Shown: piece by piece, positions 7,823 through 56,286 of the stretch
How the letters are laid out: each line of letters starts with the position of its first letter
Position numbering within the stretch: position 1 is the first letter of the stretch
Origin: a virus
Taxonomy: Duplodnaviria > Caudoviricetes
DNA length: 64,000 nucleotides
Strand: one strand, 5' to 3'
IMG/VR virus record: IMGVR_UViG_3300024272_002379
Notes under the pieces: generated by a model
Seen by the model: only the letters and a program-made list of their open reading frames with translations
What the model was told of the DNA's origin: nothing
Database searches by the model: none
Program-made: the position numbers and the translations under genes

Positions 7823-8024
7823 TCATTAATATTACTGGTCCAATGAGTATATATGACCTTAAACTATTTTACTCACTGACATACATATACTAAAAATTAC
7901 CCCTAGTTGAACTTGAAATTACTCGCTGTGTATTTCTTGAAGAGCTAGGGGTAAGTATTTTACCCTTAACTACAATGAGAACTCAGTTTTACGTGCATGA
8001 TGAGCACAGAAAGGATGGTCTATT

Positions 8025-9740: not shown

Positions 9741-10534
9741 AGGTGTGCTTGTAACCTTGATAGGTACTAAACTGAACTACGTTCAGTTTAGCAGATATTT
9801 TCTTAAAAGTCAAGAGGTAACTCAAATAAAATCAGAGCGTTATCTGCTGTGTAAAGATAGCGGTTTAACGGAGCCACAAGACTATATTCCGTGGCACACG
9901 GACATTTATACGGGGATTTTGATATATCAACCCCTAATTTGTCTGTCCGTGGCGAACAATCTTAGGATTAGTAGCCCTCACAATGGAGCAAATTCTTGCG
10001 TAATAAGGCCCTTCGGGATTGAGTTGGCGTTACAAAGTCCGTAGAGATGAGATGATAATAGAATATTATACAGTCTCTCGACGAGGGTAGCTGGTCATCT
10101 TATTCTATTTTTGAGTATTTTATAACAAAATGTAACATAGTACTACTCATCGTAGTGTTACATTCTATATGAGGAGATATTCTCTTATATAGGTTATATT
10201 CCCCTCTTGACTCTATATACATGTATCTTATTACCTCTATTATATGGCTATGGTATGCTATGTTATTTATTATATACTATAGCCATTTTATATATTCATT
10301 TATCTAAGGTTTTCTTATATTCATATCTTATCTTTATGCCATATATTCTTTTATGGTTCTTAGAGATTTTATTCTATATTATTTAGGTTTTTAAGTTAAA
10401 TTATCTCTCCCTTCGGACTTAAATAATATACATGGTTTATTTCAAATATGTCGGAGGGTTTGAGGAATTTCTTTTAATTAGTATGGATTATCACCATATC
10501 TAACAGGCTATCGCCTGGTTTAAAGATTGGAGGA

Positions 10535-10873
10535 ATGTATATTATGGATGAAAGATTTGTTGCTATTATTGTATCTGCTATTATCGCTATTATATTTGCT
10601 TTAATATATCAGAGTATTGAAGATGCTTTCTTTACTGTGAAATATGATGAAGAAAATGATGAGGATGATACAGTAGAATACGAATTCATTGATGAAGACC
10701 TTTATCCTGGTTGTTTTGTTTATGACACTATTACAGGAGAAATCGTACAATACACTGGTGTTCATCTGGGTGAAGACAATAATAATTACGCTACCTGTGT
10801 ATCTATGAAAGATAATACAGTTCGCTATTATTATTGTTTATTTGAAACTATATTACATGTAAGACAGAAGTGA
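10535..10873 (+). CDS. hypothetical membrane-anchored protein
   Basis: N-terminal TM helix; GGAGG SD. Confidence 0.7.
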   Translation: MYIMDERFVAIIVSAIIAIIFALIYQSIEDAFFTVKYDEENDEDDTVEYEFIDEDLYPGCFVYDTITGEIVQYTGVHLGEDNNNYATCVSMKDNTVRYYYCLFETILHVRQK

Positions 10874-10915
10874 TGAGCTGTCTTTAAAGAAAAAACGAAA
10901 GGTTGGTATACTATT

Positions 10916-13900
10916 ATGACAAACATTAATTTTGAAGATTTAAAGGTAACTGAATTGAAAGAGCTTTGCAGAAAGGCTAACATTAAAGGCTATTCTCGTA
11001 TGAAGAAAGCTGAACTCGTTGATGCTCTCAATAATAATAAAGAGGCTAAGAAAGTTATTCTTAATGAGGCTAAGACATTTGCTAAAAATGAATTAGGACG
11101 TGACTTTGGTAAAGCTGTATCTTTCTGGAAACAGTTACGTAGCATTAAATTCATGACTGCTAACGACTATACTGAAATGGTTGATAACTGGAAAATCCTT
11201 ATCAGTTTATTCCATATCGCTGAAGTTGACGGTACTCAGAATCGTGCTTTAACCGACTCTCTTATGGGTACTGCTGAATCTCTTCGTGATATCTTCTGTC
11301 CTGGAACTGATATCAGTGGTTATTCTGATGACGAACTTAAAGAGTTTATCGAATCATCAATCGAAGAGTTTTCATTATCTGTATTCTCTAAACGCTTAAA
11401 GAAAGAGAATACTGAAATCATTAAAATGAGCATGGACCATATTTCATTTAATGACCAGGGATTGGCATACTTTGACTCTACTAAAGCATCTAAATTCACT
11501 GGCAAAGAGGTTAGAGCTCATAAAACTGATATGCGTATCGTGGAATCATCTGAAGACGGTATCTCTCGTATGCTTATGAGCAGAGGATTATCATCTATCA
11601 CTGTATTTATGGGTAAAACTGCTCAGAAAGAAGAAGAGATGAAACTCATTAATGACTGTAAGAGAAACATCTTCAAAAATGGTTTTGTTGACATCTCTAC
11701 TGGCAAGCATTATATGTTCGCATTCCAGAATCCATCATCATGTCGTAAATCTAACTTCATGTTTGTTGAGGCAAACGACTGGAATGAAGTAGTTTCATTA
11801 TGGCTTGAGATTACTGGTCTTAAGACATGGGAAGAATTCCAGCGTGCATTCTTTGATGATGAGGGTAAAGTAGTTATGGCTAAGTTATTGGCTAGAATTT
11901 CTACTAGAGGTTCTAACTCATTTAACTTATCAAAGATTAGTCCTGTGTGGGCTGATAAGATTGCGAAATCTAATATCAGATATTGTAAAGACCCATCATG
12001 GACAATTAAGAGACCTTTCAAAACAATGAAAGGACCTGGTTGTATGGAAATGCAGGAAGACGTTGAACGTACAGTTACTCCTGGTGACGGTCAGATGATT
12101 GGCTCATTTGAATTCCATGCTCTTATGGCAGTTGCTTTAAGAGTTATCTCAGAGAATGAATACAATGAGTTCTCTATGTTATGGGAGAAAGCCAATAAGG
12201 ACGTTAAGAATGTAAAAGAGGGTTCTCGTCTTTACAAACTTATTAAGAAAATCCCAGGTGTATTCCAGCTTCGTCATGGTGAAAAGAAAGGTATCTGTGT
12301 AAGATACAATATTGAGGCTATTGATGAACTTAAGGATGTAAATGCTATCGTACCAGACAGTGTTCGTAAGTTCGTAGCTGGTGAATGGGATGAGTTCCCA
12401 TTGGAAATTTGTAATTATATCAAGAAGAAAGACCAGTGGGTAGCTTTAAATCCACAGTTCATTCAGGCTCTTGAATATGAAAATCCAAATGCTTTATTAC
12501 CTATTGTTAAGTTCTGGTTTGATTACATGAAAGACTCTCTCAGCGATATTGCTAAAGCTCAGCAGTTCCATGGTATTATTAAGAACTCTGATGATGAGGA
12601 GAATAAAACAATTGCTGGTAATCTTGTTACAGCTATGCGTACTTCATCTGATTTAATTGATGATGCACAGATTTGTAACTGGAGAAAAGACCAGTATCGT
12701 AAATTCATTTCTGATATGAAAATCGGTAGAATATTAGTTCCTGGTCAGTATACTTATATGGTATGTGACCCAGCATTCATTATCAATCAGGTATTTGGTC
12801 TCGATTTACCTCATCTTGCAGAGGGTGAATATTACCACAATGGTAAAGAATGTGAATGTGGATTATTCAGAAGTCCATTAATTCATCCAAGTGAGGCTCA
12901 GAGAGTTAAGTTATCTAACAATGAGGCTTATTGGTACATGCAGGATGTAATCGTCTTTAATGGTAAAGACGGTGCATGGGATAGAATGTCTGGGGCAGAT
13001 TTTGATGGAGATACCTGTGCTGTTATCACAAACGACACTGATTTTGGTAAGATTGTTGTTGACGGTATCAGACAATTATCATTTGATATCTGGGAAGAGG
13101 CACAGAAAGCTGTAAAGAAACCATTTAATATGGATAACTTTATTGAACATCTTGTAACTTCTGCTAAAGTTGATAGAACTGGTGTTATTACCAATTATGC
13201 TTCTAAAGCATTGGATATTAGTAATCATTTAAAGAGTGCTGTATACTTTGCTAAGTTATTAGGCTGTGAGAATATCACATTAATTCACCCACAGGCATTT
13301 GGTGAAAAGCTCGGTAGTGATTTCCAGCCTAAGACTGGTATTATTGATGGTGTGAAGACATTCATGCTCAAAGGATTTGTTGAGGCTAAATATAATTCAC
13401 AGACAAGACGTGTTGAATTTGCAGACACTGGTTTTGTTGGTACATTTGATTTCGATAAAATCCTTGAAATTGCAGATAATTATCTTAACCTTGTAGAGAT
13501 TTTAAGAATCTTACAGGGTAGAGAGATTGATGGTGCTAAGACTGGTGTATATGCAGAGGGTGTATCTGGTAATGACTTCATTGATGCTGTTAAGATTAAA
13601 TTCACTCCTCATGAAATGATTGTACGTCAGGAAACATTGGATAGAGAAGTTGCTTTATCTTCTAAATGTAATGAGTATTGGTCATTATCTCCTCTTGCAC
13701 GTATTCATGATTATGTAGTAATGCATGAAAATGAGATTATGGACTATTTAACAAATGGTTCTAATAAAATCTTCTTACTTCAGTCATTACTTACAGATGA
13801 GGAAGCTAATGCAATGAATACACCATATTTAATGCAGGATGGTAGTTATAAAACTCTTATTGACATTATGGCTATTCGTAAGAAAGCATATAACTCTAAG

Positions 13901-14650
13901 ATTTATGACACTATGAAGAATCTTACAGGTGATGATGCTTCTAATACTTTGAAAGAAATCAAAGATGTTGAGGTTGATGACTTGAATGAATTAGCTACAG
14001 CATTAAATATCAGCACCGAAATCGTAGCTGTTGCAGGCTATATTGCAACATACACTAAAGACAGTAAGCAGGGCGAGGGCTTGACATATGCATGGTTATT
14101 ATTCGATGAATTATTATCAGTATTTAGCCGTGGCAACAAGAAATTTGAGCTTTTCAGATTACCTTCTTCTGTTGAGAATGCTTATATTGAAAATAAGGTT
14201 CTCTATGTCAATGGGAACAAATACATCAACATTAATGCAAATGATTGCAATAACGTTGTAATTCAGGTAATTAATGGTAGACCTTACGGTTTAATCCACA
14301 AGCTTGTGGATAAAGTAGCATCTCCTAGAAAGAGCAACGTTACTTATGGTAGTGCAGTATATACTATTGGTACTTTAGGATTTAAATATCACATTGTAAG
14401 TGAGAATCCTAAAGATGAGTGGAAGAAACTTGTCAAAGAAAATGGTTATGTATTCGACATTACTATGGATGCTACAAATCGTGCAGTTATCAGCATTAAT
14501 GGCAAATCTATTTCTGCTCTTATGAGTGTTGGTGCAAGCTTTGACTTAATGAATAAGAAAGTTAAACTTGTAAATGATATGCAGAATCCTATTAAGGAAA
14601 CAAATGCATCTATTACAAATCTTGCTGTTATTATCATTGGCGAGGCTTAA
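10916..14650 (+). CDS. single-chain two-barrel DNA-dependent RNA polymerase (YonO-like, eukaryotic RdRP-related) with N-terminal Rho-N/HeH domain
   Basis: Catalytic SGADFDGD; RdRP-family motifs DGQMIG, FQLRHGEKKG, RSPLIHP; N-terminal LKVTELKELCRKANIKGYSRMKKAELVDAL. Confidence 0.85.
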   Translation: MTNINFEDLKVTELKELCRKANIKGYSRMKKAELVDALNNNKEAKKVILNEAKTFAKNELGRDFGKAVSFWKQLRSIKFMTANDYTEMVDNWKILISLFHIAEVDGTQNRALTDSLMGTAESLRDIFCPGTDISGYSDDELKEFIESSIEEFSLSVFSKRLKKENTEIIKMSMDHISFNDQGLAYFDSTKASKFTGKEVRAHKTDMRIVESSEDGISRMLMSRGLSSITVFMGKTAQKEEEMKLINDCKRNIFKNGFVDISTGKHYMFAFQNPSSCRKSNFMFVEANDWNEVVSLWLEITGLKTWEEFQRAFFDDEGKVVMAKLLARISTRGSNSFNLSKISPVWADKIAKSNIRYCKDPSWTIKRPFKTMKGPGCMEMQEDVERTVTPGDGQMIGSFEFHALMAVALRVISENEYNEFSMLWEKANKDVKNVKEGSRLYKLIKKIPGVFQLRHGEKKGICVRYNIEAIDELKDVNAIVPDSVRKFVAGEWDEFPLEICNYIKKKDQWVALNPQFIQALEYENPNALLPIVKFWFDYMKDSLSDIAKAQQFHGIIKNSDDEENKTIAGNLVTAMRTSSDLIDDAQICNWRKDQYRKFISDMKIGRILVPGQYTYMVCDPAFIINQVFGLDLPHLAEGEYYHNGKECECGLFRSPLIHPSEAQRVKLSNNEAYWYMQDVIVFNGKDGAWDRMSGADFDGDTCAVITNDTDFGKIVVDGIRQLSFDIWEEAQKAVKKPFNMDNFIEHLVTSAKVDRTGVITNYASKALDISNHLKSAVYFAKLLGCENITLIHPQAFGEKLGSDFQPKTGIIDGVKTFMLKGFVEAKYNSQTRRVEFADTGFVGTFDFDKILEIADNYLNLVEILRILQGREIDGAKTGVYAEGVSGNDFIDAVKIKFTPHEMIVRQETLDREVALSSKCNEYWSLSPLARIHDYVVMHENEIMDYLTNGSNKIFLLQSLLTDEEANAMNTPYLMQDGSYKTLIDIMAIRKKAYNSKIYDTMKNLTGDDASNTLKEIKDVEVDDLNELATALNISTEIVAVAGYIATYTKDSKQGEGLTYAWLLFDELLSVFSRGNKKFELFRLPSSVENAYIENKVLYVNGNKYININANDCNNVVIQVINGRPYGLIHKLVDKVASPRKSNVTYGSAVYTIGTLGFKYHIVSENPKDEWKKLVKENGYVFDITMDATNRAVISINGKSISALMSVGASFDLMNKKVKLVNDMQNPIKETNASITNLAVIIIGEA

Positions 14651-21639: not shown

Positions 21640-22014
21640 GGGCCTGTAATGGTATCGACAGGGGCATGAAAGTTATGAGTTCGTCCGAGTGGTGACGCTA
21701 TCACCAACTTTAAAATTAAACGCAAACAGACCAATGTTAGCGGCTGCCTAGTTGCAGCTACCAAAACACAGTAAGATATTGCTGGTAACTGTTGAGGTTC
21801 AAAAACTAGCATAGTATAAGAAGTTCTCTGTATACAACTTAGTGAACAGAGTGGTGGAGCAAGTAAGAAACCTTACTAGCCTAGTATCTCAGGTCTGGAA
21901 GACGATAGCCAGTGAGTGAAAGCTGAGATGAAATAACTCATTTAAGTTCGTAACGACGTAAAGACTTATAATGAATAATGTTTTTGGACACGGGTTCGAC
22001 TCCCGTCAGGTCCA
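21640..22014 (+). ncRNA. ssrA: tmRNA; tag peptide (A)ANRPMLAAA
   Basis: GGGCCTG..GGTATCGAC 5' end with G3:U70; GACACGGGTTCGACTCCCGTCAGGTCCA 3' end; resume codon GCA at 21722, TAG at 21749. Confidence 0.92.
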
Positions 22015-22042
22015 CTCTATATTACTATAAGGAGACACAAAT

Positions 22043-22828
22043 ATGAAATTTCAAAAGTTTTTGGTAACTGCTCTTCTGTTAACTTTAGTTTTATATTCTA
22101 CATATTATTGGAATGAACAAAGTAAAACAGAAATCATACAAGCCGTTAACCAGTCTAGTAATGAAATATTAGAAAAAGAAAATAAAGTTGAAACCATAGT
22201 AGAAACTGTGTACATAGACAGAAAAGATAGAGACCATGAGAATTACTCTATTCTTCAACTTGATGTAAAAAGTATTTCTCAGCTTCCAGAGCTTCCAACT
22301 GGATGCGAAGTTACATCATTAGCTATTGTTTTAAACTACTTAGGATATGAGGCAGATAAAGAAATTCTTGCTGATACATATTTACCTAAAGGACCAATTG
22401 GAGAGACCCATCCCGACGTGGCTTTTATAGGTAATCCTAGAGATGCTTATGCTTATGGTGCTAACGCACCTGTATTGGTTAAAACTGCAAATGATTATTT
22501 AGCAGATATGAAATCCGACTATAAAGCTCACAATATTACTGGTACAGATTTTAAAGACTTACTTAGTTATGTAAATGATGGTTATCCAGTAATGATATGG
22601 GAAACAATTGGTTTTCTTGAACGTTATCCATCTACAAAATGGGTTATTGACAACAGAGAGTTTCAGTGGTATGCTAATTTCCATTGTATGGTGTTAATTG
22701 GTTATACAGATAGTGACTATATCTTATTAGACCCTCTGGATGAAAAGAATGAAGTTCATTTTGTAAATAAAGAACTTGTTGAAAAACGATATGACGAGCT
22801 TGCAAAGCAGGCTATTGTTATATATTAG
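22043..22828 (+). CDS. membrane-anchored peptidase C39-like protein
   Basis: N-terminal TM; QLPELPTGCEVTSL...HCMVLIGY...DP. Confidence 0.8.
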   Translation: MKFQKFLVTALLLTLVLYSTYYWNEQSKTEIIQAVNQSSNEILEKENKVETIVETVYIDRKDRDHENYSILQLDVKSISQLPELPTGCEVTSLAIVLNYLGYEADKEILADTYLPKGPIGETHPDVAFIGNPRDAYAYGANAPVLVKTANDYLADMKSDYKAHNITGTDFKDLLSYVNDGYPVMIWETIGFLERYPSTKWVIDNREFQWYANFHCMVLIGYTDSDYILLDPLDEKNEVHFVNKELVEKRYDELAKQAIVIY

Positions 22829-22888
22829 GTCATAATTAAGACCATCCTTTTGTAAAAAGATTTTTATACGGGTCTCATCAACCCGTAT
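22829..22888 (+). ncRNA. putative anti-SD/anti-start-codon antisense sRNA (copy 2), directly 5' of tRNA-Pro
   Basis: GTCATAAT-TA-AGACCATCCTTT complementary to 8010-8029; CTCATCA loop complementary to TGATGAG at 7998 and 10871. Confidence 0.55.
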
Positions 22889-22963
22889 CGGAATGTAGTT
22901 CAGCTTGGCTAGAACGCTTGTTTTGGGAACAAGAGGTCGCAGGTTCGAATCCTGTCATTCCGA
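22889..22963 (+). tRNA. tRNA-Pro(UGG)
   Basis: Cloverleaf; CTTGT-TTTGGGA-ACAAG; GGTTCGAATCC. Confidence 0.9.
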
Positions 22964-23172
22964 CTAAGACTTTTTGTTACCTCTAAGGCATTCTCTTATA
23001 CGGGTTCCGTATGGGGGATATAAGGAGCGAGGCGAACCTGAATCTTCCAGTCTCTAAAGAAGAATGAAGTGGCGTTTATGGTTATTATTTCCTTTGTACG
23101 ACAACAAAGAAATTTAATTCTTTTTCATTTTTTGGTGTTCCTTTAGGAATAAAGCTGTCTAACGACAGCTAA

Positions 23173-23252
<80 letters not shown>

Positions 23253-23339
23253 TTTTCAAAACGCCATAGTTTTGGAAAACCTCGTTTGTGTAAAAAATCA
23301 TCGAACCTGGCAGTGTATAGGTTAACTGCCACCCCACAT

Positions 23340-23412
23340 GCCCCAATTGCACAGTTGGTAGTGCGACTGATTTGTAATCAGTAGGTCGGCGGTTCGAGTC
23401 CGTCTTGGGGCT
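23340..23412 (+). tRNA. tRNA-Thr(UGU)
   Basis: ACTGA-TTTGTAA-TCAGT; GGTTCGAGTCC. Confidence 0.88.
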
Positions 23413-23857
23413 TTGTTACATAAGCATTTATGCCCTAAGTAGCAGATAGACATAAATGTGTAACAAAACGATGGTCTGCTATAATCGGTAAAGTTGTTCT
23501 ATCCTGTATAGAGGTTATTGGGTCCGATTCAGGTAAAACTAACGAAACAGGACGATTTATTGGCGTACTTTAGTGAAAGCAGAGTCGAGTAACTAAAGAG
23601 AAAATCAATACCCAGTTCATCATTCTTTCTGGGTTACGTGAGACGTTAGTATGGTCTCGCCGTAAAGATTAAGCTGTGATATAGTATCAAAGCTATATTG
23701 CGGAATCAGGTAGGATATTTATATCAGACCTAACGTATACATAAGTTAAAACGAAGGTAATCCAACAGTGAACCGCAGTACAGAAGGTGGGCCTAGTGTT
23801 TGTAATACAAAGTTAGACCGTGCGGGGCTAATGCATGTTTCTTATGATACGGTATAT

Positions 23858-23940
23858 GCAGCGTTGTGATAATGGTAGTCGGGCGGTCTTGAAAACCGTT
23901 GTGTCGAAAGGCATTGGGAGTTCAAGTCTCTCACGCTGCG
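23858..23940 (+). tRNA. tRNA-Ser(UGA)
   Basis: GCGGT-CTTGAAA-ACCGT; long variable arm; G73. Confidence 0.85.
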
Positions 23941-24079
23941 TTTGGCTAAGCATAGGTAGCCGTACCCAGATGACGAAACGACAGTCGTCATATAACAAGC
24001 CTATTGCAGTTTATCATGTACTAAACATGAAGGCTCTTCTGTTTTAGATGCCAGTCTGTGCAGGAGGGCCGAAGTCTCT

Positions 24080-24168
24080 GGAGTGTTACTCAAGTTGGTG
24101 AAGAGGGAACCCTGCTAAGGTTCTAGCGTCCATTATGGGCGGCGAAGGTTCGAGTCCTTCACACTCCG
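24080..24168 (+). tRNA. tRNA-Ser(GCU)
   Basis: GAACC-CTGCTAA-GGTTC; long variable arm; G73. Confidence 0.88.
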
Positions 24169-24434
24169 TTAAGGCTGAAGTGCAATGCTAAATTTTTATG
24201 TAATAGCACGCCCGTAAAAGACGTTGAGGTTGAGGACAATGAGTATGGAAGTGGCCTTTCGAGGCCTAACACGAAAGTTTGACAATAAGTACCGAATGCA
24301 TAAGATTGACCCATCTAAATGCTACGTCAGTGGGAGGAACTTATGTAAATACGTTGATACTACGAAGAAGTATCTGCTTGGAAAACGAATAGGTCATTCC
24401 CGTTTCTAGCATTTCTGTACGAAAACAGAATTAA

Positions 24435-24528
24435 CGGAAGGTAGCCTAGTGGCTAGGCTTGTTGCGAAAAAACGGGTGAAAGCAACTGGAAACGCCGTTT
24501 GACGTGAGTTCGAATCTCACTCTTCCGT
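24435..24528 (+). ncRNA. tRNA-like RNA with 16-nt anticodon-position loop and possible pseudoknot
   Basis: Acceptor CGGAAGG/TCTTCCG, D-arm, T-arm GTGAG-TTCGAAT-CTCAC; no canonical anticodon loop. Confidence 0.65.
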
Positions 24529-24708
24529 CTATATCATCAATATCAACTTACAACAGCCATGGTAATGTTGTGAGAGCGTCATAGGAAGACGTTCTTCCTA
24601 CTTCAAAGAGACTGGAGTATGCAACAATAGCTGATGAGGCTCATGACCCCATAAATTGCAGGATAAATAAACAGCGTCTGCTGAAAGATGACAAAGATGA
24701 TATTATTT

Positions 24709-24782
24709 GGACCATTAGCTCAGTTGGTCAGAGCGGTCGGCTCATAACCGATTGGTCCTTGGTTCGAGTCCAAGATGGTCCA
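24709..24782 (+). tRNA. tRNA-Ile2/Met(CAU)
   Basis: GGACCAT acceptor; GTCGG-CTCATAA-CCGAT; resembles Firmicutes Ile2. Confidence 0.85.
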
Positions 24783-24832
24783 CTAAGAACTCAATACGCC
24801 TCTTAACAATGCGGACCACGTTGAGTCAAAAA

Positions 24833-24957
24833 CCTGGGGGAGCTGTGGCAAGCAGCCATCTGATAAATGGTGAGTTAAAATATGAAGATACTTTATATCG
24901 GCATATTACTATGGTGAAAACCCATTCATTAACTAGGTTCGATTCCTGGCTCCAGGA
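24833..24957 (+). ncRNA. tRNA-Ile(GAU)-like RNA with ~55-60-nt insertion in the variable region
   Basis: CCTGGGG/CTCCAGG acceptor; CCAT-CTGATAA-ATGG; CTAGG-TTCGATT-CCTGG. Confidence 0.6.
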
Positions 24958-25112
24958 CTATAATGCCTAACGGCATTAATATGGAATAGAAACCCCAATC
25001 AATTCCGTGTCAAACGAATTTCAAGACTACCAGGGGGAACCTAACAAGGCTGTTATTTGTGCTGCTTGTGGCGTTAGGCTGGTAGAAGTAACCTACCCCA
25101 ATTACAATTAAA

Positions 25113-25817
25113 TATTGTGCTTTAAAATGCACACATATATCCTGGTGAAGATTGTTTAATCAACATGCCAGGGCATATCTACAGTAAGTATGAAATAATA
25201 TTCGTTACAGGCTTAGCCAGTATGTTTATTATGTAATACTGAGACGTATGAGAACATGGGATACTTTGTTCGGTAGTGCGTTTAACGGATATAAATCAAG
25301 TCCTAAGGACGTGGTGAAGTTCTGTTATGAAGAAGGGAACCCTTCAAACGATTGATATGGCGTAACTTATACATAACGATTAGTGTGACATGCTTTTGGT
25401 GAACAGAATAGACGCTCTCTGTGAGAGAATAACCCTGGGAACTGGATGAGCTGGTAACTCATTACAGATGGCAGGGAATTACCAAACAAGTTCATTCGCT
25501 GTGATACCGAGACAACTCGGAGTATAACGAAAGCATAAGTCGCAAGTAGCCTAAGGCGATAAAAGAGAATATAACAGTGATAAGATGAATGAATGTATCA
25601 TCAAAACATATTCTGAACGATTCGGGTGAAAGCTGGAGGTGCCAATCCTTCATGGGTTTTAGACTGATAAAAGGCTGTTAACCTTTATCAGTTGGGGCAA
25701 GAAGTATGGAAGTCATGAGCCATGCTCAGACTTGTCTCCCCATTCGCATAATAAATCACAATGTATATTTTATAAGATGAATAAAAGTCTATATGGTGTG
25801 TGTTTTAAAGCACAATA
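25113..25817 (+). ncRNA. large ornate ncRNA (GOLLD/ROOL-like)
   Basis: ~700 nt, ORF-free, closed by a ~20-bp terminal stem TATTGTGCTTTAAAATGCACAC/GTGTGTGTTTTAAAGCACAATA; lies inside a phage tRNA cluster. Confidence 0.55.
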
Positions 25818-25836
25818 CTAACAGCAACGGAAACTA

Positions 25837-25865
25837 TTGACATTCCATTGCTGTTTTTGTATAAT
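25837..25865 (+). promoter_or_regulatory. consensus sigma-A promoter upstream of tRNA-Tyr
   Basis: TTGACA-17-TATAAT. Confidence 0.75.
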
Positions 25866-25877
25866 TACAATCAATTC

Positions 25878-25961
25878 GGGTAGGTAGACCGTAGTTGGTA
25901 GCGGGCCAGACTGTAAATCTGGTGCCTTCGGGCTCCGTTAGTTCGATTCTGACCCTGCCCA
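25878..25961 (+). tRNA. tRNA-Tyr(GUA)
   Basis: CCAGA-CTGTAAA-TCTGG; variable arm GCCTTCGGGC. Confidence 0.88.
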
Positions 25962-26148
25962 TTTACATCAAGGACGGTTGGTGACAATTTATTTGTCAAA
26001 GGGATAAGGGCAATACATGTTACCGCTTATCGTGTAGATGTGTAGTGCAAAGTGTATTGGTGTGAGATTGTTTCCATATTAGAGAAACAGCCAATCTTAA
26101 ATGTGAAATATCTAATTAGAGAAGGATAAAGTAACAGCTTTGTATTAT

Positions 26149-26220
26149 AGAATATTAGCTTTAACGGCAAAAGCACACGGCTGATAACCGTGGTCAGCGG
26201 TTCGACTCCGCTATATTCTG
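26149..26220 (+). tRNA. tRNA-Ile(GAU)
   Basis: CACGG-CTGATAA-CCGTG; GGTTCGACTCC; atypical G discriminator. Confidence 0.8.
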
Positions 26221-26441
26221 TTCTTTGTGAGTGTGACTACTTACAATGACCTAAAACGGCTCGTAAACTTGTAGAAAGGGCAGGCCGACGGGTAAGAGTG
26301 CCGCAAGTACCAAATAACCCTGAGGGTAAAACTGGGTTCGCCTCTTTTTGAGCACGGGATGCAGAAAAGAATAGACATCTCTCAAAGTTTAGGTAAATAA
26401 ACAGCTTAGGTTGGTAACCTCTTAGTCAGAAATAACCATAT

Positions 26442-26514
26442 TGGGTATTAGCTCAGTCGGCAGAGCACATGGCTGTTAACCATGGTGTCGTAGGTTCGAG
26501 CCCTACATACCCAG
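26442..26514 (+). tRNA. tRNA-Asn(GUU)
   Basis: CATGG-CTGTTAA-CCATG. Confidence 0.9.
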
Positions 26515-26816
26515 TTTAAATCAAACTGAAACGAGTCAGGCCCAATCGCTCGATTAAGTATGTGAGGAAAGTGAGGTTGGTTGCCAGCTTACTCAAGACT
26601 TCGTGTGCTTGAGGACAGCCCATTTATGGGTCCCCACTGGTTGTAAAATGTCTTCGCATTTAAAGTGGTGTTGTAAAATACATTCCGCTTAATCTTTAGT
26701 TTGGTTTTATTTGGAGAGACATGTTGTAGCGGTTTCTACGTATGTACAAAGGCTCTGGACAAGTCTTATTTTTTGAAACAGCAAGCGTGCGATTATCAGG
26801 TTAGTCTCTCCAGTAT

Positions 26817-26890
26817 AGCGGGGTAGAGCAGTCAGGCAGCTCGCAAGGCTCATAACCTTGAGGTCATAGGTTCAAATCCTATCCCCGCCA
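26817..26890 (+). tRNA. initiator tRNA-fMet(CAU)
   Basis: A1:C72 mismatch; CAAGG-CTCATAA-CCTTG; GGTTCAAATCC. Confidence 0.88.
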
Positions 26891-26963
26891 CTCATGAAAA
26901 CAAGTGATTGTTTTCTGATATCAGGCATTTATCGGGTTCGAATAGATGTAGGTATTGTTTTTA

Positions 26964-31782: not shown

Positions 31783-33378
31783 ATGAAACAGTACAGAATT
31801 ACAGGTAAGGCAAAAATTTTAATCATTGTCTTTGTTATTGTAGTATTGGCAGGACTTATCGGCGGTGGCTTAAAAACAGGCCTTATCAAAAACGACATCA
31901 AAGATGGTGGTAGTAATACAGTAGTATCTCAGGACAGCAATACAGGTTCTAACAAAAAAGAAGAATCTAATGCTACAGTAAAACCAGAAGTAACAGATAC
32001 AATTAACCTCTCATTAGATGAGTGGATTGGTTGGAAATCTATTGTAGATGCTAATGGTGATTTAACAACAGATGCAGAAGAAGCTTTTGCTTTAATGGGT
32101 ATCAATGTAAACATTCATGTTATGAATGATGCCACACAGTCAAGTAATGCATTAATCAAAGGTGATTTGGATGCTGCTGGTTATACAATCAACAGAACTG
32201 CATTCTTATCTTCTAAGTTTAAAAATGCTGGCGTAGATGTTGTAATGCCATTCATTACTAACTATTCTAACGGCGGTGACGGTATTATCGCAAAATCAAG
32301 TATCAAATCAGTTAATGACTTAGTTGGTGCTAAAATCGGTGTACCAGAATTCTCTGAGGCTCAGACATTAGTTGTTTGGTTTGTAAACAATTCTAACTTA
32401 ACTCAGGCAGAAAAAGATACAATTATCGACAATCTTATTATGTTTGCAACTCCAGATGAAGCCGCTAAAGCGTTCTTCTCAGGACAGGTTGATGTAGCTG
32501 CTACATGGGAACCATATTTAACACAGGCTGAAAATATGACAGATTGCCATATCTTATTTAGTACAGCAAGTTCTTCAAATCTTGTAATGGATGGTATCTT
32601 ATTCCGTAAGGATTTCGTAGATGCTAATCCAGAAACTGTAGAAAAATTCATTATGGCTTGTTTAATGGCTGCTGATAAATATGAAACAGATTTCGATGCA
32701 ATCAGAAAAGTTATGCCTATGTATTCTACAATGTCTGATGAAGACATTAAGGCAAACTGTGTTGCTGCTAAGTTAACAACATGGAAAGATAATGCTGATT
32801 TATTAAACGGAACTGCTAAGATTATGTACACAGACATGTGTGAAGTATGGCAGTCTATCGGTGAAGAAGTCGATGCAAGTATCGTAGATACTTTATTTGA
32901 TGATAAATACATTCAGAATATCGCTTTTAATTTCAGCAGTACAGATTCATCTTATGATACAGGTAAAACTCAGGTAACAGAAGAGAATAAACAGATTATT
33001 GCTGATACACAGGCATTACTTGGCGGTACAGCATCTGTAACATTCGAGAAGAATACAGCTAAATTCTCTGATTCTGCCGCTGCTTCTGCTGAACTTAATA
33101 AGTTTATTGAAATGGCAAAAGTACTTGACGGTGCTATTATCGAGATTGCTGGTAATACAGACCCAAATCCTAACAGCGACCCTCTCGATGAGTACAATAA
33201 GAAATTGTCTTCTCAGAGAGCTGAAGCTGTTAAGAATTACTTCATCATGAACGGTATTTCTGCTGATAGAATTGTTACGGTTGGTAACGGTTCAAGCAAT
33301 CCTATCGTTGATAACGATACAGAAGAGCATCGTGCAATGAATCGTCGTACAGACGTATCATTTAAAATTATTGAATAA
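31783..33378 (+). CDS. ABC substrate-binding protein (NMT1/SsuA-like) fused to C-terminal OmpA-like peptidoglycan-binding domain
   Basis: SNGGDGII...DVAATWEPY; IAGNTD...NKKLSSQRAEAVKNY...NRRTD. Confidence 0.85.
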   Translation: MKQYRITGKAKILIIVFVIVVLAGLIGGGLKTGLIKNDIKDGGSNTVVSQDSNTGSNKKEESNATVKPEVTDTINLSLDEWIGWKSIVDANGDLTTDAEEAFALMGINVNIHVMNDATQSSNALIKGDLDAAGYTINRTAFLSSKFKNAGVDVVMPFITNYSNGGDGIIAKSSIKSVNDLVGAKIGVPEFSEAQTLVVWFVNNSNLTQAEKDTIIDNLIMFATPDEAAKAFFSGQVDVAATWEPYLTQAENMTDCHILFSTASSSNLVMDGILFRKDFVDANPETVEKFIMACLMAADKYETDFDAIRKVMPMYSTMSDEDIKANCVAAKLTTWKDNADLLNGTAKIMYTDMCEVWQSIGEEVDASIVDTLFDDKYIQNIAFNFSSTDSSYDTGKTQVTEENKQIIADTQALLGGTASVTFEKNTAKFSDSAAASAELNKFIEMAKVLDGAIIEIAGNTDPNPNSDPLDEYNKKLSSQRAEAVKNYFIMNGISADRIVTVGNGSSNPIVDNDTEEHRAMNRRTDVSFKIIE

Positions 33379-34852: not shown

Positions 34853-35567
34853 ACCTTGCTGTATATATATTGGCTTTAATTGGTCAATGAAAATACAACA
34901 AATTAGGACAAACCAATCCAGCAGAGAACATTATCAGCATACTACAGGACATAAGCAGGATAGGACATCACAAACGGCTCGTTAGAGCCTTTATATATAC
35001 AGCAAGGTTGTTGTATAAAGCTCATTATAGGACAGAATAGCTCATAGCAGATGATATCATTAAAATACATAATAACACAAAGTCTTTTATAATCTCTTAT
35101 ATGTATATCGACTTTAAATGCTTAGAGTCAATATACATGTAAGAGAGGACAGGACAACTCAGTGCATTTCTACCACAACAAATGACAATGTATAACAAAG
35201 CAGAGGGGCGATTTTCGCCCCATTTTTATGAATACATATATTGGCTTTAATGGTCAATAGAACAATACAGTGCAGAGCAGTATATAATAGCTCAGTTAAG
35301 AATACCATAGCATAACACAAATGGCTCTTAGAGCCTTTATATGTGTTCATAAATAGATATATTGACTTTAGCAGTCAATAAGCTCAAAAGACCGTAGAAC
35401 AGGACAGCTCATTACAAAGTAGTTCAGGTTAAAACAAGCGAAAACAAAGGCTCGTTAGAGTCAATGTATGTGTTTATGAAACACAAAAGCACAAAGACAG
35501 CATAATACATGTCAGTGCAACATAGGATATTACAAATCATTACAAAATCCTATTGAAAATCAATAGG
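34853..35567 (+). repeat. array of six 5-nt-periodic (NNNYA)n tracts separated by four conserved hairpin cassettes; candidate guide-RNA array
   Basis: Tracts at about 34891-34972, 35020-35079, 35147-35202, 35260-35319, 35382-35446, 35481-35544; cassette motif TATATTGRCTTTA...TTAGAGYC. Confidence 0.85.
35205..35228 (+). terminator. intrinsic terminator-like hairpin within the array
   Basis: GGGGCG-ATTTT-CGCCCC-ATTTTT. Confidence 0.6.
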
Positions 35568-35585: not shown

Positions 35586-36242
35586 ATGGCAGCTAAAGTT
35601 ACAGAAGAAGTAAAAGAGATTCAGAACAAAATTAATTTCGCTACAGCAACAATTACAATTGTTGGCGATAGTGACCTTATTCTTAACAAAATGAGAGATA
35701 GCACTACTCAGGAACTTGCAGATAAACAGGAAGGTAAAGTACAGGGTACAAAGAAACCTGTAAACATGTACGAGCATCTTGTTGGTTCCATTCATTGGCT
35801 CAAGGGAGAAGAAACAGACTATACAGAAGAAGGCTGGTTGAATGCATTAAAGAATAATGTTCCAGGTTATCCATCTTCAGGTATGAAGAAAGCATTATGT
35901 GATGCTGTTGTTCGTGTATTAGGCGAAACATATAGCACAAAGTTCAATGCTAACGTACAGATTCTTAATAGCTTCTTACCAATCGAATTTGGTTCAAGTG
36001 CTTATGATAAATCATTATTTAGCCCTCAGAAGGGTAGTCCAGTTCTTTGTTACAGAAATGTATTCAGAGATTGGAAAACAACATTTACAATTAAATATAT
36101 TCCAGACAATTATTCATTAGACCGTATCATCGAAGTTATTAACTGTGCAGGTTTTGCATGTGGTATCGGTAGCCACAGACCATCAAGTAAAGGTGGCTCC
36201 AACGGTATGTTCCACGTAGAATCCGTTATGGAAGTAGTTTAA
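35586..36242 (+). CDS. stand-alone RAMP/Cas7-like RRM-fold protein
   Basis: N-terminal strand TITIVGDSDLIL; PGYPSSGMKKAL helix; FRDWKTTFTI strand; C-terminal G-rich loop GFACGIGSHRPSSKGGSNGMFHV. Confidence 0.7.
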   Translation: MAAKVTEEVKEIQNKINFATATITIVGDSDLILNKMRDSTTQELADKQEGKVQGTKKPVNMYEHLVGSIHWLKGEETDYTEEGWLNALKNNVPGYPSSGMKKALCDAVVRVLGETYSTKFNANVQILNSFLPIEFGSSAYDKSLFSPQKGSPVLCYRNVFRDWKTTFTIKYIPDNYSLDRIIEVINCAGFACGIGSHRPSSKGGSNGMFHVESVMEVV

Positions 36243-36980: not shown

Positions 36981-37241
36981 AAAACAAAATAGGATATAGT
37001 TGGTAATATACGTAGTTTCGGGTTCGAGGAACCATTTTCTGTACCATCCACAGGAATAAACGAAGAGGAATTACAAGTACATTGGCGACAAGGTGTGCGA
37101 ACAAAGACGACCATTACAGTCATTCATGGTTAATCGTGTACAAAATGTATGAGAGTATCATATGCACTGCTCTCATACTACTTGTCGAACGAAATAAGTA
37201 TTGAAATATTTTTCAAATCTGTTACAATATATAACACATAT

Positions 37242-37313
37242 AGGGCTATCGCCAAGCGGTAAGGCACAGGATTTTGATTCCTGCATCCGTTGGTTCGAAT
37301 CCAACTAGCCCTG
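37242..37313 (+). tRNA. tRNA-Gln(UUG)
   Basis: GCCAAGCGGTAAGGC D-arm; CAGGA-TTTTGAT-TCCTG. Confidence 0.9.
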
Positions 37314-37398
37314 TTCATAGTGGTCAGTGTTAATGCACACTGTAAATAAAGTAGCCTCTCGATTGGCTTTCAATGGTCAGCTTTAACCACTATAACAT

Positions 37399-37573
37399 AC
37401 ACGGGTTGTCTGAGCTGGTGAGAGATGATATCTTATCAATAGGCCAGTGAACTAGGTGCCAACCACTCTGATTAGAGTAGGGACATGTGAAAGTTATAAG
37501 GGAAGGAACGCTGATACGTAGCATTGTTTTGGTAACTTGATGAGTAGTAGAGGTTCGATTCCTTGCCCGTGTG
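37399..37573 (+). ncRNA. tRNA-like RNA with a ~120-nt domain replacing the anticodon arm
   Basis: ACACGGG/CCCGTGT acceptor; GGTTCGATTCC T-loop; CTTATCAA/TTGATGAG internal stem. Confidence 0.55.
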
Positions 37574-37588
37574 TTAAAGACCAAGCAA

Positions 37589-37661
37589 AGGTAAGTAGCT
37601 CAGTTGGGAGAGCACCCTGCATTGAGCGGGGTCGTCGCAGGTTCGAGTCCTGCCTTGTCTT
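37589..37661 (+). tRNA. atypical tRNA (loop CATTGAG, nominal UUG anticodon without U33)
   Basis: TAGCTCAGTTGGGAGAGC D-arm, GCAGG-TTCGAGT-CCTGC T-arm, weak acceptor stem. Confidence 0.6.
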
Positions 37662-37823
37662 GATATAAGCTGAAGTCTTGAAGCCAAGTATAGTCATGCG
37701 GTGGGTGGATATTTACATTAGGTCCAATGAGATTAGACTTTAGTATCTATCAAATAGAACTGTTGACTAAAAATAATGCCCAGCAAAAACCATATGCTGG
37801 GCTATTTTATTGGAGGAAATTAT

Positions 37824-52979: not shown

Positions 52980-54365
52980 ATGGCATCAGCATCTAGCAAT
53001 TTAGATTTCAGCGGTTTTGATGATTTATTTAAGGACATGGGTGTAAGCGAAAGCCCTTCTAATGCTGCTATGGAAGCATCAATCGCAAATGAGCAGAATG
53101 TTACAGCACAGCCAGTGCAGGTTGATGGAATTCAGATTCAGAATGTAAATGCACCTATTAATCCAGCACTTGTTCAGTCTGGTCAGGTGAAAATGCAGCA
53201 GATTTTCGTAGAAATGAACAATCTTTTCGTAGAAAGAGATACATTGATTAAGTTAATGCAGTTAGCTGTTGTTACAGGTACTAACCTTTTAATGTTAGGC
53301 CCTCCTGGTACTGCTAAATCAGCTATTACTTATGAACTTTGCGGTAGAGTAGAAAATGCTAACTACTTCCAGTGGATGTTAAATAAGACTTCTGACCCAT
53401 CAGAAGTATTTGGTCCATTCTCTGTTAAAGAAATGGAAAATGATAAATTCATGCGTATTACAACAGGTAAGTTACCTGAGGCACATATTGCGTTCATGGA
53501 TGAGGTATTTAAATCAAATGCCCCTACCTTAAATGCATTGTTAACTATTATGAATGAACATATCTTCTACAACGACGGTAAGCCACAGCCTGTTCCGTTA
53601 ATCTCTATGTTCGGTGCTTCTAATGAGCCACCAGAAGATGAAACTTTGGATGCTATGTACGACCGTTTCATTTTCCGTATCAATGTTCAGTACATTCATG
53701 ATGCAGCTAACAAAAAGCGTATGCACGCTAACTATGTAGACAACAGAGCTGGTTTACTCGGTCTTGCAGGTAAGACTACAATTACTTTAGCTGAATTACA
53801 GGCTTTACAGGAAGCTTCTAAATCAGTAAAAGTTCCAAAAGATATTATCAACAAGTTCATTCGTCTTATCAGTGATTTAGACCGTCAGGCTATTCACGTA
53901 TCTGATAGACGTCAGAATGAATGTTTCAAGGTAATGCAGGGTAACGCAGTTCTTGCAGGTAGAAACGTAGTAGGTCTTGATGACTTTAAATCTCTCATCT
54001 ATGTATTATGGGAGAAAGAAGAGCACATTCCTATGATTGAATCTGCAATTCTTAAGATGGTTAATCCTTATGATGACCGCTTCAAAGAACTTAAAGAGAA
54101 CTTCAGTCAGGTTAAGACAGATATCGACAGCATCTCAGATTCATCTCAGAAATCTAAGAAAGCAATCGAATCTAAGGGTGTAATCGAGAAAATCGTAAGC
54201 AAGACAAACAAGCTCATCAACGAAGCATCTAAGAATGGTAAAGATGTAACTGAATTTACAGAGTTCAGAGATGAAATGATTCAGTACAATCAGAAATTAA
54301 TCTCTGCTGCTCTCGGTACTGCATTCGGTGGCTTTGGTGATGATGATAGCGATAGTCCCTGGTAA
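52980..54365 (+). CDS. MoxR/RavA-family AAA+ ATPase
   Basis: GPPGTAKS, EVFGP, FMDEVFK, GASNE, DRF, SDRR. Confidence 0.9.
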   Translation: MASASSNLDFSGFDDLFKDMGVSESPSNAAMEASIANEQNVTAQPVQVDGIQIQNVNAPINPALVQSGQVKMQQIFVEMNNLFVERDTLIKLMQLAVVTGTNLLMLGPPGTAKSAITYELCGRVENANYFQWMLNKTSDPSEVFGPFSVKEMENDKFMRITTGKLPEAHIAFMDEVFKSNAPTLNALLTIMNEHIFYNDGKPQPVPLISMFGASNEPPEDETLDAMYDRFIFRINVQYIHDAANKKRMHANYVDNRAGLLGLAGKTTITLAELQALQEASKSVKVPKDIINKFIRLISDLDRQAIHVSDRRQNECFKVMQGNAVLAGRNVVGLDDFKSLIYVLWEKEEHIPMIESAILKMVNPYDDRFKELKENFSQVKTDIDSISDSSQKSKKAIESKGVIEKIVSKTNKLINEASKNGKDVTEFTEFRDEMIQYNQKLISAALGTAFGGFGDDDSDSPW

Positions 54366-54450
54366 TTCGCTAAAATATACGACAACATTTACCATTAACA
54401 ACAATGCAGTTGTTAATATGACTTTTTATTAACCAGAAAGGGAAAAATAA

Positions 54451-56286
54451 ATGGGAAACTTAGACAATTTAGGTTTTGATGAATTATTGGAAGAACTTGA
54501 TGAGATTGCAAATATCTCACAGTCTTCTGTTTCAACAAACAGTGTTTCGCCAGCTCAGAAAAAGGTTGGTGGTTTTCAGGATATGTCATCAGAAGAAATT
54601 GAGCAGTTTCAGAGTTCCCAGGAATATAAAGAGTATAAAGCAGATATTGAAGAGGCTGTAAGTACACCTGCAAATTTTAAAGGTAAGACTGTTCAGGAAA
54701 TTATGGGTTTATCCAATAGAAAAGATACTATTGGATATTCCTATAATGCATTGGAGCATTATGATGTTGACATTGACATCTATCAGGACATTGTTGACCA
54801 GTCACCTGTTATGCAACAGACGTTGGAAGAGGGCGAGGAACTTCTTCCAACGTTTAAGTATTTACATCAAGATATCTTCTTAAGTCTTTATAAGTATAAA
54901 GCAAGAGTACTTCCTGAGACAGAAATGCACATTTCTACACGTATGAATCGTGGTATTATTAGTAATTTGATTAACACACCAGAGTATATCTCATTGCGTC
55001 AGACTTGTCGTATGGACCAGTTTAATGCTGCATTAGGTACAGAGATTATTGGTAGAGAAGCTATTGACATTCTAAGAGAAGCCATTGATAAAATCAAAGA
55101 CCTTCAGAAAAAGAAAGATGCAATGGACAGACTTCTTGAAGAAGAAGAAAAGATGGATGCTCTCATGGAAGAAATTGGCGATATTGATGAGCTAATCGAA
55201 GATGCTAAGCGTCAGGGTAATGGTGCTTATGCCGCTCAGCTTGCTGCTGATAGACAAGCTAAAGAAGAGGCCGTTGCTCGACTTAAAGCAATGGCTAACA
55301 AGATTGCTGAAGAATGTGACGAACTTCTTGATGATGATGAATTAGCATCTGAAGTAAGTACTGTTATGGGTAGTACATTATCCCAGACAGGTCAGGAAGT
55401 ACAGGAAGTATCTGACTTATGTCAGGCATGGGGATTAGGTACTGGTGAAAACTGTCACGTTGCTTTCCAGAACAAGAAAGATGCAATTGAGCGTATTAGA
55501 CGTTCCTCTAAATTAAATAAGCTTACTGATTTAGTTGGTAGATTTAAAGAATCTGCCATTACTGAACAGAAAAAGAAAGCTAAACATGGTGCAGTTGAAA
55601 TTAAATCTGTAACTGTTGGTAGTAGAGTAGAAGATACATTACCTTCAGACAGAATGAATCTTTGCAATGACACAACAAAGAAAGATTTCTATCGTCGTAT
55701 GACAGAAAATCAGTTGATGACATACAGCAAAGAGGCACACAAACAGAAGAACAAAGGTCCAATTATCGTATGTGTTGATACTTCTGGTTCAATGCAGGGT
55801 GATGAGGAAATCTGGAGTAAAGCTCTTACTGTAGGTATTCTTGAAGTTGCTCAGATGCAGAAACGTGACTTTGCTTGTATTATTTACAGTAGTCATGCTG
55901 ACGCACCAATTGTTATCAAGAAAGATGAAATTGCTCCTCAGAAGATTATTAATTGTGCCGAACGATTTCATAATGGCGGTACAAGCTTCGAGGCACCATT
56001 AAATGAAGCCCTTGAGTTAATTAAGGACTCAACATTTAAGAATGCTGATATCGTATTCATTACTGACGGTGATTGTTACGTATCAGATAGTTTCAGTCGT
56101 AAATTCAAACAGATGAAAGAAGAGAAAGACTTTAAGACTCTCGGTGTATTAGTAAACATGGGTAGAGGTCATGTATCTGATAGCAGCTTGAAAGAATTCT
56201 GTGATAGTATTACACTAGTTAGTGATATTGCAGATTTGAAGGATAGTAGTTCAGATGTAAATAAGTCTATCTTTGGTGCATTATAA
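54451..56286 (+). CDS. vWA domain protein (ViaA/CoxE-like), partner of the MoxR ATPase
   Basis: KGPIIVCVDTSGSM...GGT...ADIVFITDG MIDAS. Confidence 0.9.
   Translation: MGNLDNLGFDELLEELDEIANISQSSVSTNSVSPAQKKVGGFQDMSSEEIEQFQSSQEYKEYKADIEEAVSTPANFKGKTVQEIMGLSNRKDTIGYSYNALEHYDVDIDIYQDIVDQSPVMQQTLEEGEELLPTFKYLHQDIFLSLYKYKARVLPETEMHISTRMNRGIISNLINTPEYISLRQTCRMDQFNAALGTEIIGREAIDILREAIDKIKDLQKKKDAMDRLLEEEEKMDALMEEIGDIDELIEDAKRQGNGAYAAQLAADRQAKEEAVARLKAMANKIAEECDELLDDDELASEVSTVMGSTLSQTGQEVQEVSDLCQAWGLGTGENCHVAFQNKKDAIERIRRSSKLNKLTDLVGRFKESAITEQKKKAKHGAVEIKSVTVGSRVEDTLPSDRMNLCNDTTKKDFYRRMTENQLMTYSKEAHKQKNKGPIIVCVDTSGSMQGDEEIWSKALTVGILEVAQMQKRDFACIIYSSHADAPIVIKKDEIAPQKIINCAERFHNGGTSFEAPLNEALELIKDSTFKNADIVFITDGDCYVSDSFSRKFKQMKEEKDFKTLGVLVNMGRGHVSDSSLKEFCDSITLVSDIADLKDSSSDVNKSIFGAL

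Follow-up and report, generated by a model that had tools for sequence, protein, structure and literature searches.

The features described here occupy a 740-nt gap between two open reading frames (ORFs), encoding 175 and 218 amino acids, in a 64,000-nt stretch of Caudoviricetes DNA (IMG/VR record IMGVR_UViG_3300024272_002379; hereafter the window). All genes around the gap lie on the + strand, and the start of the 175-aa ORF is probably an ATG 27 nt downstream of the annotated one. The window is phage-like, with a tRNA cluster, a tmRNA gene, proteins matched only by PHROGs, and 35% G+C. The same pair of genes, with proteins 85%–89% identical, is found on two IMG/VR contigs of 208 and 210 kb, and the same architecture recurs in relatives down to 50% protein identity. 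Elsewhere, the window encodes a protein of 1244 aa (10916-14650) that combines a Rho_N domain with a eukaryotic-type RdRP domain (PF05183) and may belong with the YonO-like single-subunit RNA polymerases. At 21640-26891, ten tRNA genes follow a tmRNA gene whose tag reads ANRPMLAAA, and two tRNA-Gln genes lie further on, downstream of the 218-aa ORF (37241-37662). The phage also encodes a 531-aa protein in which a periplasmic substrate-binding domain of the NMT1-like type is fused to an OmpA domain (31783-33378). At 52980-56286, the gene for a bpMoxR AAA+ ATPase precedes one for a VWA-domain protein, so that this phage carries a MoxR-VWA pair.

Segmentation of the window places six tracts of 5-nt units in the gap, between 34884 and 35562, with 11–15 units each and 74 in total, of which 71 are pentamers and three are 6 nt long (Table 1). 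Position 5 is A in 71/71 pentamers, a uniformity that is partly built in because the segmentation rewards a terminal A. Position 4 is C in 63% and T in 25% (88% together), position 3 is A in 62%, and position 1 is G in 45%; position 2 is flat, with an entropy of 1.98 bits per unit, and position 1 carries 1.78 bits. Positions 3–5, which we refer to as the scaffold, most often read ACA (27 of 74 units), followed by ATA (13), TCA (10), and GCA (6), and their last base is A throughout and never G. The original prediction, made from the letters of the window alone, had described six non-identical tracts in strict 5-nt phase with occasional 1-nt phase slips. The tract sequences it quoted are those found in the DNA, our segmentation arrives at the same number, its slips correspond to the three 6-nt units, and the biases it listed (A at position 5, C or T at 4, G-biased 1, A-biased 3, and a free position 2) agree with our position logo.

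A plain A-indicator power spectrum did not distinguish the region; because the As at positions 3 and 5 partly cancel, this indicator is insensitive, and we used the dinucleotide C/T-A (YA) instead. We counted YA dinucleotides spaced exactly 5 nt apart over ten-unit runs across the whole 64 kb. Three stretches alone reach 9–10 of 10 (35233-35332, 35375-35459, and 35483-35562), and 34884-34943 and 34998-35092 reach 7–8; no first-order Markov shuffle of the whole window went above 8. Local YA power at period 5 is 0.39 in the region versus 0.14 ± 0.03 in 300 shuffles (z 8.1), so the proposed periodicity holds against shuffled sequence, and at periods 3, 4, 6, 7, 8, and 10 the power is 0.06–0.15. 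No comparable array exists elsewhere in the window, and a candidate second one at 9741-10920 proved on inspection to contain none. Tandem Repeats Finder reported nothing over the region because the units share phase, not sequence; a search of Rfam gave a chance miRNA as its sole match, and blastn against deposited phages gave none. Comparison with related phages, which had been suggested as a check, revealed the same phase with different tract sequences in two relatives of ~210 kb and in two more distant ones.

Table 1. Features of the tract region and its flanking genes
Feature	Position	Strand	Remarks
Candidate accessory (vap-like) gene, 175 aa	34318-34845	+	Conserved position upstream of array
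Cassette 1, stem enclosing vr1	34853-35008 (arms 34853-34879, 34982-35008)	+	27-nt arms, 89% complementary
Guide tract 1 (vr1)	34896-34972	+	15 units, including two 6-nt units; predicted target, family-A DNA polymerase
vr1 3' tail hairpin, GGCTC-GTTA-GAGCC plus T-rich run	34976-34989	+	Terminator-like
Guide tract 2 (vr2)	35020-35079	+	12 units, between stems 1 and 2; predicted target, HsdM
Cassette 2, long stem	35093-35146	+	25-nt arms, 88% complementary, 4 nt apart
Guide tract 3 (vr3)	35147-35202	+	11 units, one of them 6 nt long; also kept in L001 and L002; probable target, C5 cytosine methylase
Intrinsic terminator after vr3	35205-35229	+	7-bp G+C stem plus T run
Cassette 3, stem enclosing vr4 and tail hairpin 35323-35335	35225-35353 (arms 35225-35250, 35328-35353)	+	
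Guide tract 4 (vr4)	35260-35319	+	12 units; predicted target, CpaB/RcpC-like gene
Cassette 4, stem enclosing vr5 and tail hairpin 35449-35462	35346-35480 (arms 35346-35370, 35456-35480)	+	
Guide tract 5 (vr5)	35382-35446	+	13 units; target not found
Guide tract 6 (vr6)	35490-35544	+	11 units; also kept in L001 and L002; no target found
Hairpin after vr6, 8 bp	35549-35567	+	Just upstream of vipr start codon; palindromic; scored in minus-strand reading
vipr, lone Cas7-like RAMP, 218 aa (P0001)	35586-36242	+	Assigned from profile, Pfam in relatives, and fold

Folded as RNA, the region scores z = -9.75 and is predicted to form four long stems, which we term cassettes. Tracts 1, 4, and 5 lie in the loops of 25–27-bp stems, and tracts 2, 3, and 6 lie between the stems, the terminator, and the last hairpin; the second cassette, with a loop of only 4 nt, we regard as empty. 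The stem of cassette 1 is present in the predicted minimum-energy fold, and its equivalents in relatives are stems with different distal sequences. More generally, equivalent stems of 25–42 nt are found in the related loci L001, L002, L004, and L005, where the distal arms differ and stay complementary. Each of the six tracts ends in ACAAA, and five of the six are followed within 1–5 nt by a compact hairpin; these hairpins differ and overlap the long stems. The type that follows vr1 recurs after vr4 and vr5 (family D4), the one after vr6 has a different stem sequence but preserved pairing in L001 and L002, and after vr2 the only candidate tail is a 6-bp stem closing a loop of ~25 nt. The long stems are plausibly sites at which a double-strand RNase releases the guides, and their conserved arms might allow cassettes to be exchanged.

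Several features bear on the strand that is read. Across 17 stems with 420 Watson-Crick pairs, G·U pairs number 41 on the + strand versus 5 on the − strand, a bias that indicates RNA-level structure in + strand transcripts. The + strand is also favored by the terminators and by co-orientation with the 218-aa ORF, and the stem after vr3 is followed by a T run on that strand only.

The 218-aa protein by itself matches no significant Pfam family. It has about 180 relatives, which share a conserved C-terminal glycine-rich loop, and 18 of 37 family members match the Pfam RAMPs family (PF03787). Searched against the PDB, the family profile hits a single sequence, 36pp_D, the "SUSP1 Vipr protein" (E 2.8e-5), in an alignment that covers only the C-terminal 59 residues and reflects weak or distant homology. 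The AlphaFold2 model of the 218-aa protein (pLDDT 83.5) resembles Csm3, Cmr4, and type VII Cas7 chains at Foldseek E values of 1e-6 to 1e-4. No cas domains were detected in neighboring ORFs, and the array has no CRISPR-type repeats. The gene encodes a lone RAMP outside any CRISPR-Cas locus, of the kind (RRM core, glycine-rich loop, and thumb) that characterizes VIPR, and its match to a Vipr chain leads us to assign the locus to a VIPR system and to name the gene vipr.

VIPR was first described in 2026 as a CRISPR-related phage silencer (bioRxiv 10.64898/2026.04.26.720920), with further papers on its structures (10.64898/2026.04.26.720927) and biology (10.64898/2026.10.15.759431). According to the available text of the first preprint, a VIPR system combines a single RAMP protein, Vipr, with vrRNAs that consist of 9–16 YNNGG units and a structured tail, and it also has an accessory gene, vap; adjacent Vipr protomers of a helical filament hold GGY, and NN pairs with DNA such that every third target base is skipped. 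The same text locates most targets in coding sequence, where the skipped base falls on the wobble position, and describes systems that target satellites and prophages, the type II exemplar being that of Escherichia phage SUSP1 (10.64898/2026.04.26.720920). In the parts of the VIPR preprints available, the characterized system binds double-stranded DNA, SUSP1 residues D177 and W178 read the two guanines of GGY, and published scaffold variants comprise NNNGG, YNNNG, and NNNNG; the natural biology covered in the 2026 preprints comes mainly from a single E. coli phage and a single clade of Pseudomonas prophages.

An HMM alignment places S196 and H197 of our protein at the positions of SUSP1 D177 and W178 in the G-loop (S and G in most relatives), and retains SUSP1 R179 and the thumb arginine R138, as R198 and R157. 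Judged from this alignment, the G-loop substitutions are consistent with a changed RNA specificity. The 175-aa ORF upstream of the array is a candidate for the accessory gene: equivalents 29%–73% identical occupy the same place in L001 and L004–L007, giving six loci in all. The protein has no significant Pfam match and matches only phrog_15946, of unknown function, and its AlphaFold2 model (pLDDT 76) has no fold match in the PDB.

More distant relatives offer further observations on the locus. In L006, whose protein is 42% identical, the vipr locus adjoins a gene of the Tad4 (anti-Thoeris) family and lies near a reverse transcriptase gene with a bAvd-like gene, a diversity-generating retroelement (2609-2959 and 7201-8223), surroundings that look like an anti-defense neighborhood. 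The upstream gap in the relatives of ~42% identity shows weak A-periodicity in L006 (3385-4000) and none visible in L007 (3545-4000), and the scaffold motif may differ again within this protein family.

We decoded each tract by taking unit positions 1–2 as a dinucleotide and placing one wildcard base between units. An independent evaluation of this rule used 117 polymerase loci that had been picked with tract 1 only and scored guides from relatives on them. Two such guides, L001_g1 and L002_g3, taken from the two relatives of ~210 kb, reached at least 80% on 84 and 45 locus-strands, respectively, with best scores on the polymerase loci of 30/32 and 25/28. One of them matches the same polymerase 130 codons upstream, and the other matches a neighboring gene; the matching of these loci by relatives' guides indicates that related phages converge on the same rival group. 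Signal appeared only for positions 1–2 with one skipped base, and none of the 19 other register-by-skip combinations scored. The search with gapped patterns that the original prediction had proposed thus singles out one register of the 20 combinations. Its view that the repeats carry information and are not a slippage microsatellite is likewise borne out, by exact gapped target matches of 30/30, 20/20, and 24/24 bases. Targets with one skipped base, a feature of VIPR, are found here, and because every third base is skipped, a guide reads codon positions 1–2 and ignores the wobble base. The window contains no self-target; its best match is 71%.

All 30 specified bases of vr1 are matched exactly in at least 117 IMG/VR contigs, against a chance expectation that we estimate at about 1e-6 matches. 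The matches listed are all in frame as QKGKIAELALGYGGS, in ORFs mostly of ~650–690 aa (shorter at contig ends), and third codon positions vary freely at the site. Both target ORFs tested (2/2) match PF00476, which makes them family-A DNA polymerases. Among deposited sequences, the nearest relatives are annotated as "DNA polymerase I" and come from temperate Streptococcus phages, and the copy in Streptococcus phage Javan346 matches vr1 at 29/30 bases. On these matches, vr1 is predicted to target the DNA polymerase I of temperate Firmicute phages at a conserved motif.

The first 10 units of vr2 match exactly (20/20) in at least 120 bacterial genomes from many phyla, where our estimate of chance is about one match; the last two units do not match the site. 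Every match listed is in frame as AFGDAYEYL(M/I) or a close variant, in ORFs mostly of ~525–545 aa (shorter where cut), and the two target ORFs tested (2/2) both carry PF02384 and PF12161, the domains of HsdM. The pattern also occurs on nine viral contigs. By sequence match, then, the predicted target of vr2 is the type I restriction-modification methylase HsdM. A between-stem guide of the relative L002 (2186-2260) shares the core GG GA GC TA GA TA with tract 2 of the window, with different flanking units. A different HsdM-like subfamily, with a motif close to "IGDAYEYV", may be what this guide has been redirected to, although the loci gathered contain no target that matches it.

The 10-unit core of vr4 is exact in 20 metagenome contigs, and in 17 of these it falls in ORFs mostly of ~245–286 aa (some cut by the contig end); 12 of the 17 match all 24/24 bases, as DIVDVYAVDPAT. 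The RcpC/CpaB domain PF16976 was found in both target ORFs tested (2/2), and its occurrence together with T2SSE and T2SSF genes in the one neighborhood examined identifies a Tad/Flp pilus locus. Matches in Tad pilus loci lie on contigs of up to 681 kb, and the 11-unit pattern has no match among the 2.9 million viral contigs of IMG/VR. Lipase genes in L251, L257, and L266 (MVEVYAVDPAS in frame) were set aside as candidate targets: only the 10-unit core matches there, and because the flanking vr4 units do not, the resemblance is probably a chance one between peptides. The predicted target of vr4 is accordingly a cpaB/rcpC-like gene of Tad/Flp pilus loci.

With these three, an exact target is in hand for half of the guides (vr1, vr2, and vr4). 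In the antisense direction, vr3 spells a variant of motif X from the C5 cytosine DNA methylases, and we lean toward these as its target. Near-matches of 16–18/22 decode as Q(V/I)GNAVP(P/C) in four loci (L106, L245, L246, and L069), two of which (L245 and L246) belong to PF00145. Exact matches to its 10-unit pattern are absent from IMG/VR and the metagenomes, and in 401 Clostridia genomes, allowing up to three mismatches, vr3 yielded 2 matches versus 4 for the control, and hence no enrichment. A 19/22 match in L247 was discarded, as it does not lie in a methylase. Streptococcus phage Javan346 (L249), which is of the rival type matched by vr1, has adenine and C5 cytosine methylase genes of its own (12173-14598); their presence fits the tentative reading of vr3, although the Javan346 copy itself matches at only 15/22. 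Exact searches of IMG/VR with vr5 (11 units) and vr6 (10 units) returned nothing, and in local scans of the polymerase, HsdM, Tad, and Javan346 loci, vr3 to vr6 and most of the relatives' guides scored at the control level. A single tract of 23 units in L002 (2530-2646) exceeds the published range of 9–16 and may be two guides or a staggered pair.

Taken together, these comparisons make it very probable that the 740-nt gap is a VIPR array of six guide RNAs (vrRNAs), read from the + strand of a phage of ~210 kb; it is a variant whose scaffold has a final A and no GG, and three of its six guides are well decoded. By analogy with the solved SUSP1 complex, Vipr protomers would polymerize along the RNA and grip bases 3–5 of each unit, the (A/T/G)-(C/T)-A scaffold, leaving bases 1–2, which carry the information, exposed. 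The natural matches show that these dinucleotides read a target with every third base skipped, and they would pair with one of its DNA strands. Guides, presumably freed when a double-strand RNase cleaves the stems, would be aimed at phage DNA polymerase I, hsdM, a cpaB/rcpC-like gene, and probably C5 cytosine methylases. If the published type II system is a guide, the effect would be transcriptional silencing of rival phages and of defense and surface genes.

It is possible, if short of probable, that the phage also uses VIPR to reprogram its host, with a re-tooled Vipr on an ACA-type scaffold and stem-cleaved cassettes silencing hsdM, probably C5 methylases, and a Tad pilus gene during infection; the matched hsdM and cpaB copies may not be those of the host. 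Were this so, host reprogramming would amount to RNA-guided anti-defense plus superinfection exclusion. A competing account, to which we give serious weight without holding it probable, keeps the VIPR array but places all of its targets on rival mobile elements (prophages, islands, and conjugative elements) instead of the host chromosome, such that the system would serve inter-element warfare only. The convergence of vr1 and the relatives' guides on temperate phages speaks for this account, as do the vr2 pattern on nine predicted viral contigs and, in the preprint text available, the targeting of satellites and prophages by published systems. It is harder to reconcile with a vr2 pattern that is spread over many phyla, in at least 120 species genomes of bacteria, and with a vr4 11-unit pattern that is absent from 2.9 million viral contigs and present in Tad loci on contigs of up to 681 kb.

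The well-supported targets all lie in coding regions, as they would if the guides were gapped antisense RNAs acting on messenger RNA and not on DNA. We consider this very unlikely. In each of the firm cases (vr1, vr2, vr4, L001_g1, and L002_g3), guide and coding strand read alike, which makes pairing with the mRNA impossible and fits DNA targeting; the strand evidence favors + strand RNA, and the characterized system, as described in the available preprint text, binds double-stranded DNA. Our first reading took the tracts for RNAs that act as a protein sponge or wrap around a ring, as TRAP-bound triplet repeats do, with variable bases that hold no information, a reading suggested by the 5-nt spacing of a YA(G) motif over 11–15 units. 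We dropped it on the RAMP match and the target matches, and now regard it as highly improbable: the dinucleotides spell exact matches of 10–15 codons to conserved genes, far beyond chance, and the neighboring protein is Cas7-like, not a TRAP-like ring. Just as improbable is a slippage microsatellite or compositional artifact of an intergenic region that is indeed A-rich and undistinctive in the plain A-indicator spectrum, since the units are not sequence repeats, phase is kept while relatives' sequences differ, YA periodicity stands at z 8.1, and target matches exist. The preferred reading is that of a VIPR array with informative dinucleotides.

On that reading, the locus confirms the one-base-skip code independently, by computation alone and in a distant clade, and it suggests that the GGY scaffold gripped by Vipr can be replaced by an ACA-like motif ending in A. 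Such a change would matter for how Vipr reads RNA and for the engineering of orthogonal systems. Guides against restriction-modification and pilus genes suggest possible host-directed silencing, and long-stem cassettes, one of them empty, suggest a means of packaging and perhaps exchanging guides; neither appears in the available preprint text.

Among known systems, the TRAP sites of Bacillus trp leaders, with ~11 (G/U)AG motifs at 5-nt spacing in unstructured RNA, are similar in layout; there, however, the spacer bases are informationless and here they encode targets, and the partner proteins are unrelated. The backbone proteins of class 1 CRISPR-Cas (Cas7, Csm3, and Cmr4) are the best structural match to our Vipr, and the two share a logic in which a protein filament coats a guide RNA and hides bases at regular intervals. 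The class 1 period is 6 rather than the 5 seen here, pairing in our array is gapped, and the locus has neither the 24–40-nt direct repeats with spacers nor the further cas genes of class 1 systems. Closer are the non-canonical arrays of an entropy-periodicity preprint (10.64898/2026.10.21.760802), which describes 21 clusters and names the scaffolds GAC, CAC, WGT, and TGH in its text: these are also 5-nt arrays with a non-GGY trinucleotide beside a Vipr-like fold, and the A-ending (A)YA is not among the motifs named in that text.

The SUSP1 VIPR system is the closest parallel. Both loci have a lone RAMP gene beside long non-coding gaps, without cas genes or CRISPR repeats; guides built of 9–16 five-base units (11–15 here), each with a fixed trinucleotide and a variable dinucleotide; one-base-skip targets, mostly at codon positions 1–2; and several guides that converge on one rival phage, with no self-targets. 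The structured 3' element and the small accessory gene of the SUSP1 system have candidate counterparts here. The architectures in the available text of the SUSP1 paper are staggered, hammerhead-interspersed, or single-guide, whereas guides here lie in and between long stems. Our decoded targets include hsdM and a pilus gene, the like of which we did not see in the available text of the first preprint; the words methyl, polymerase, and pilus are absent from the main text, figures aside, of the October 2026 preprint. Finally, the scaffold in our array is (A/T/G)-(C/T)-A, most often ACA, in place of GGY or the published variants that end in G. Other non-GGY VIPR arrays are in print, so this difference does not exclude the array from VIPR.
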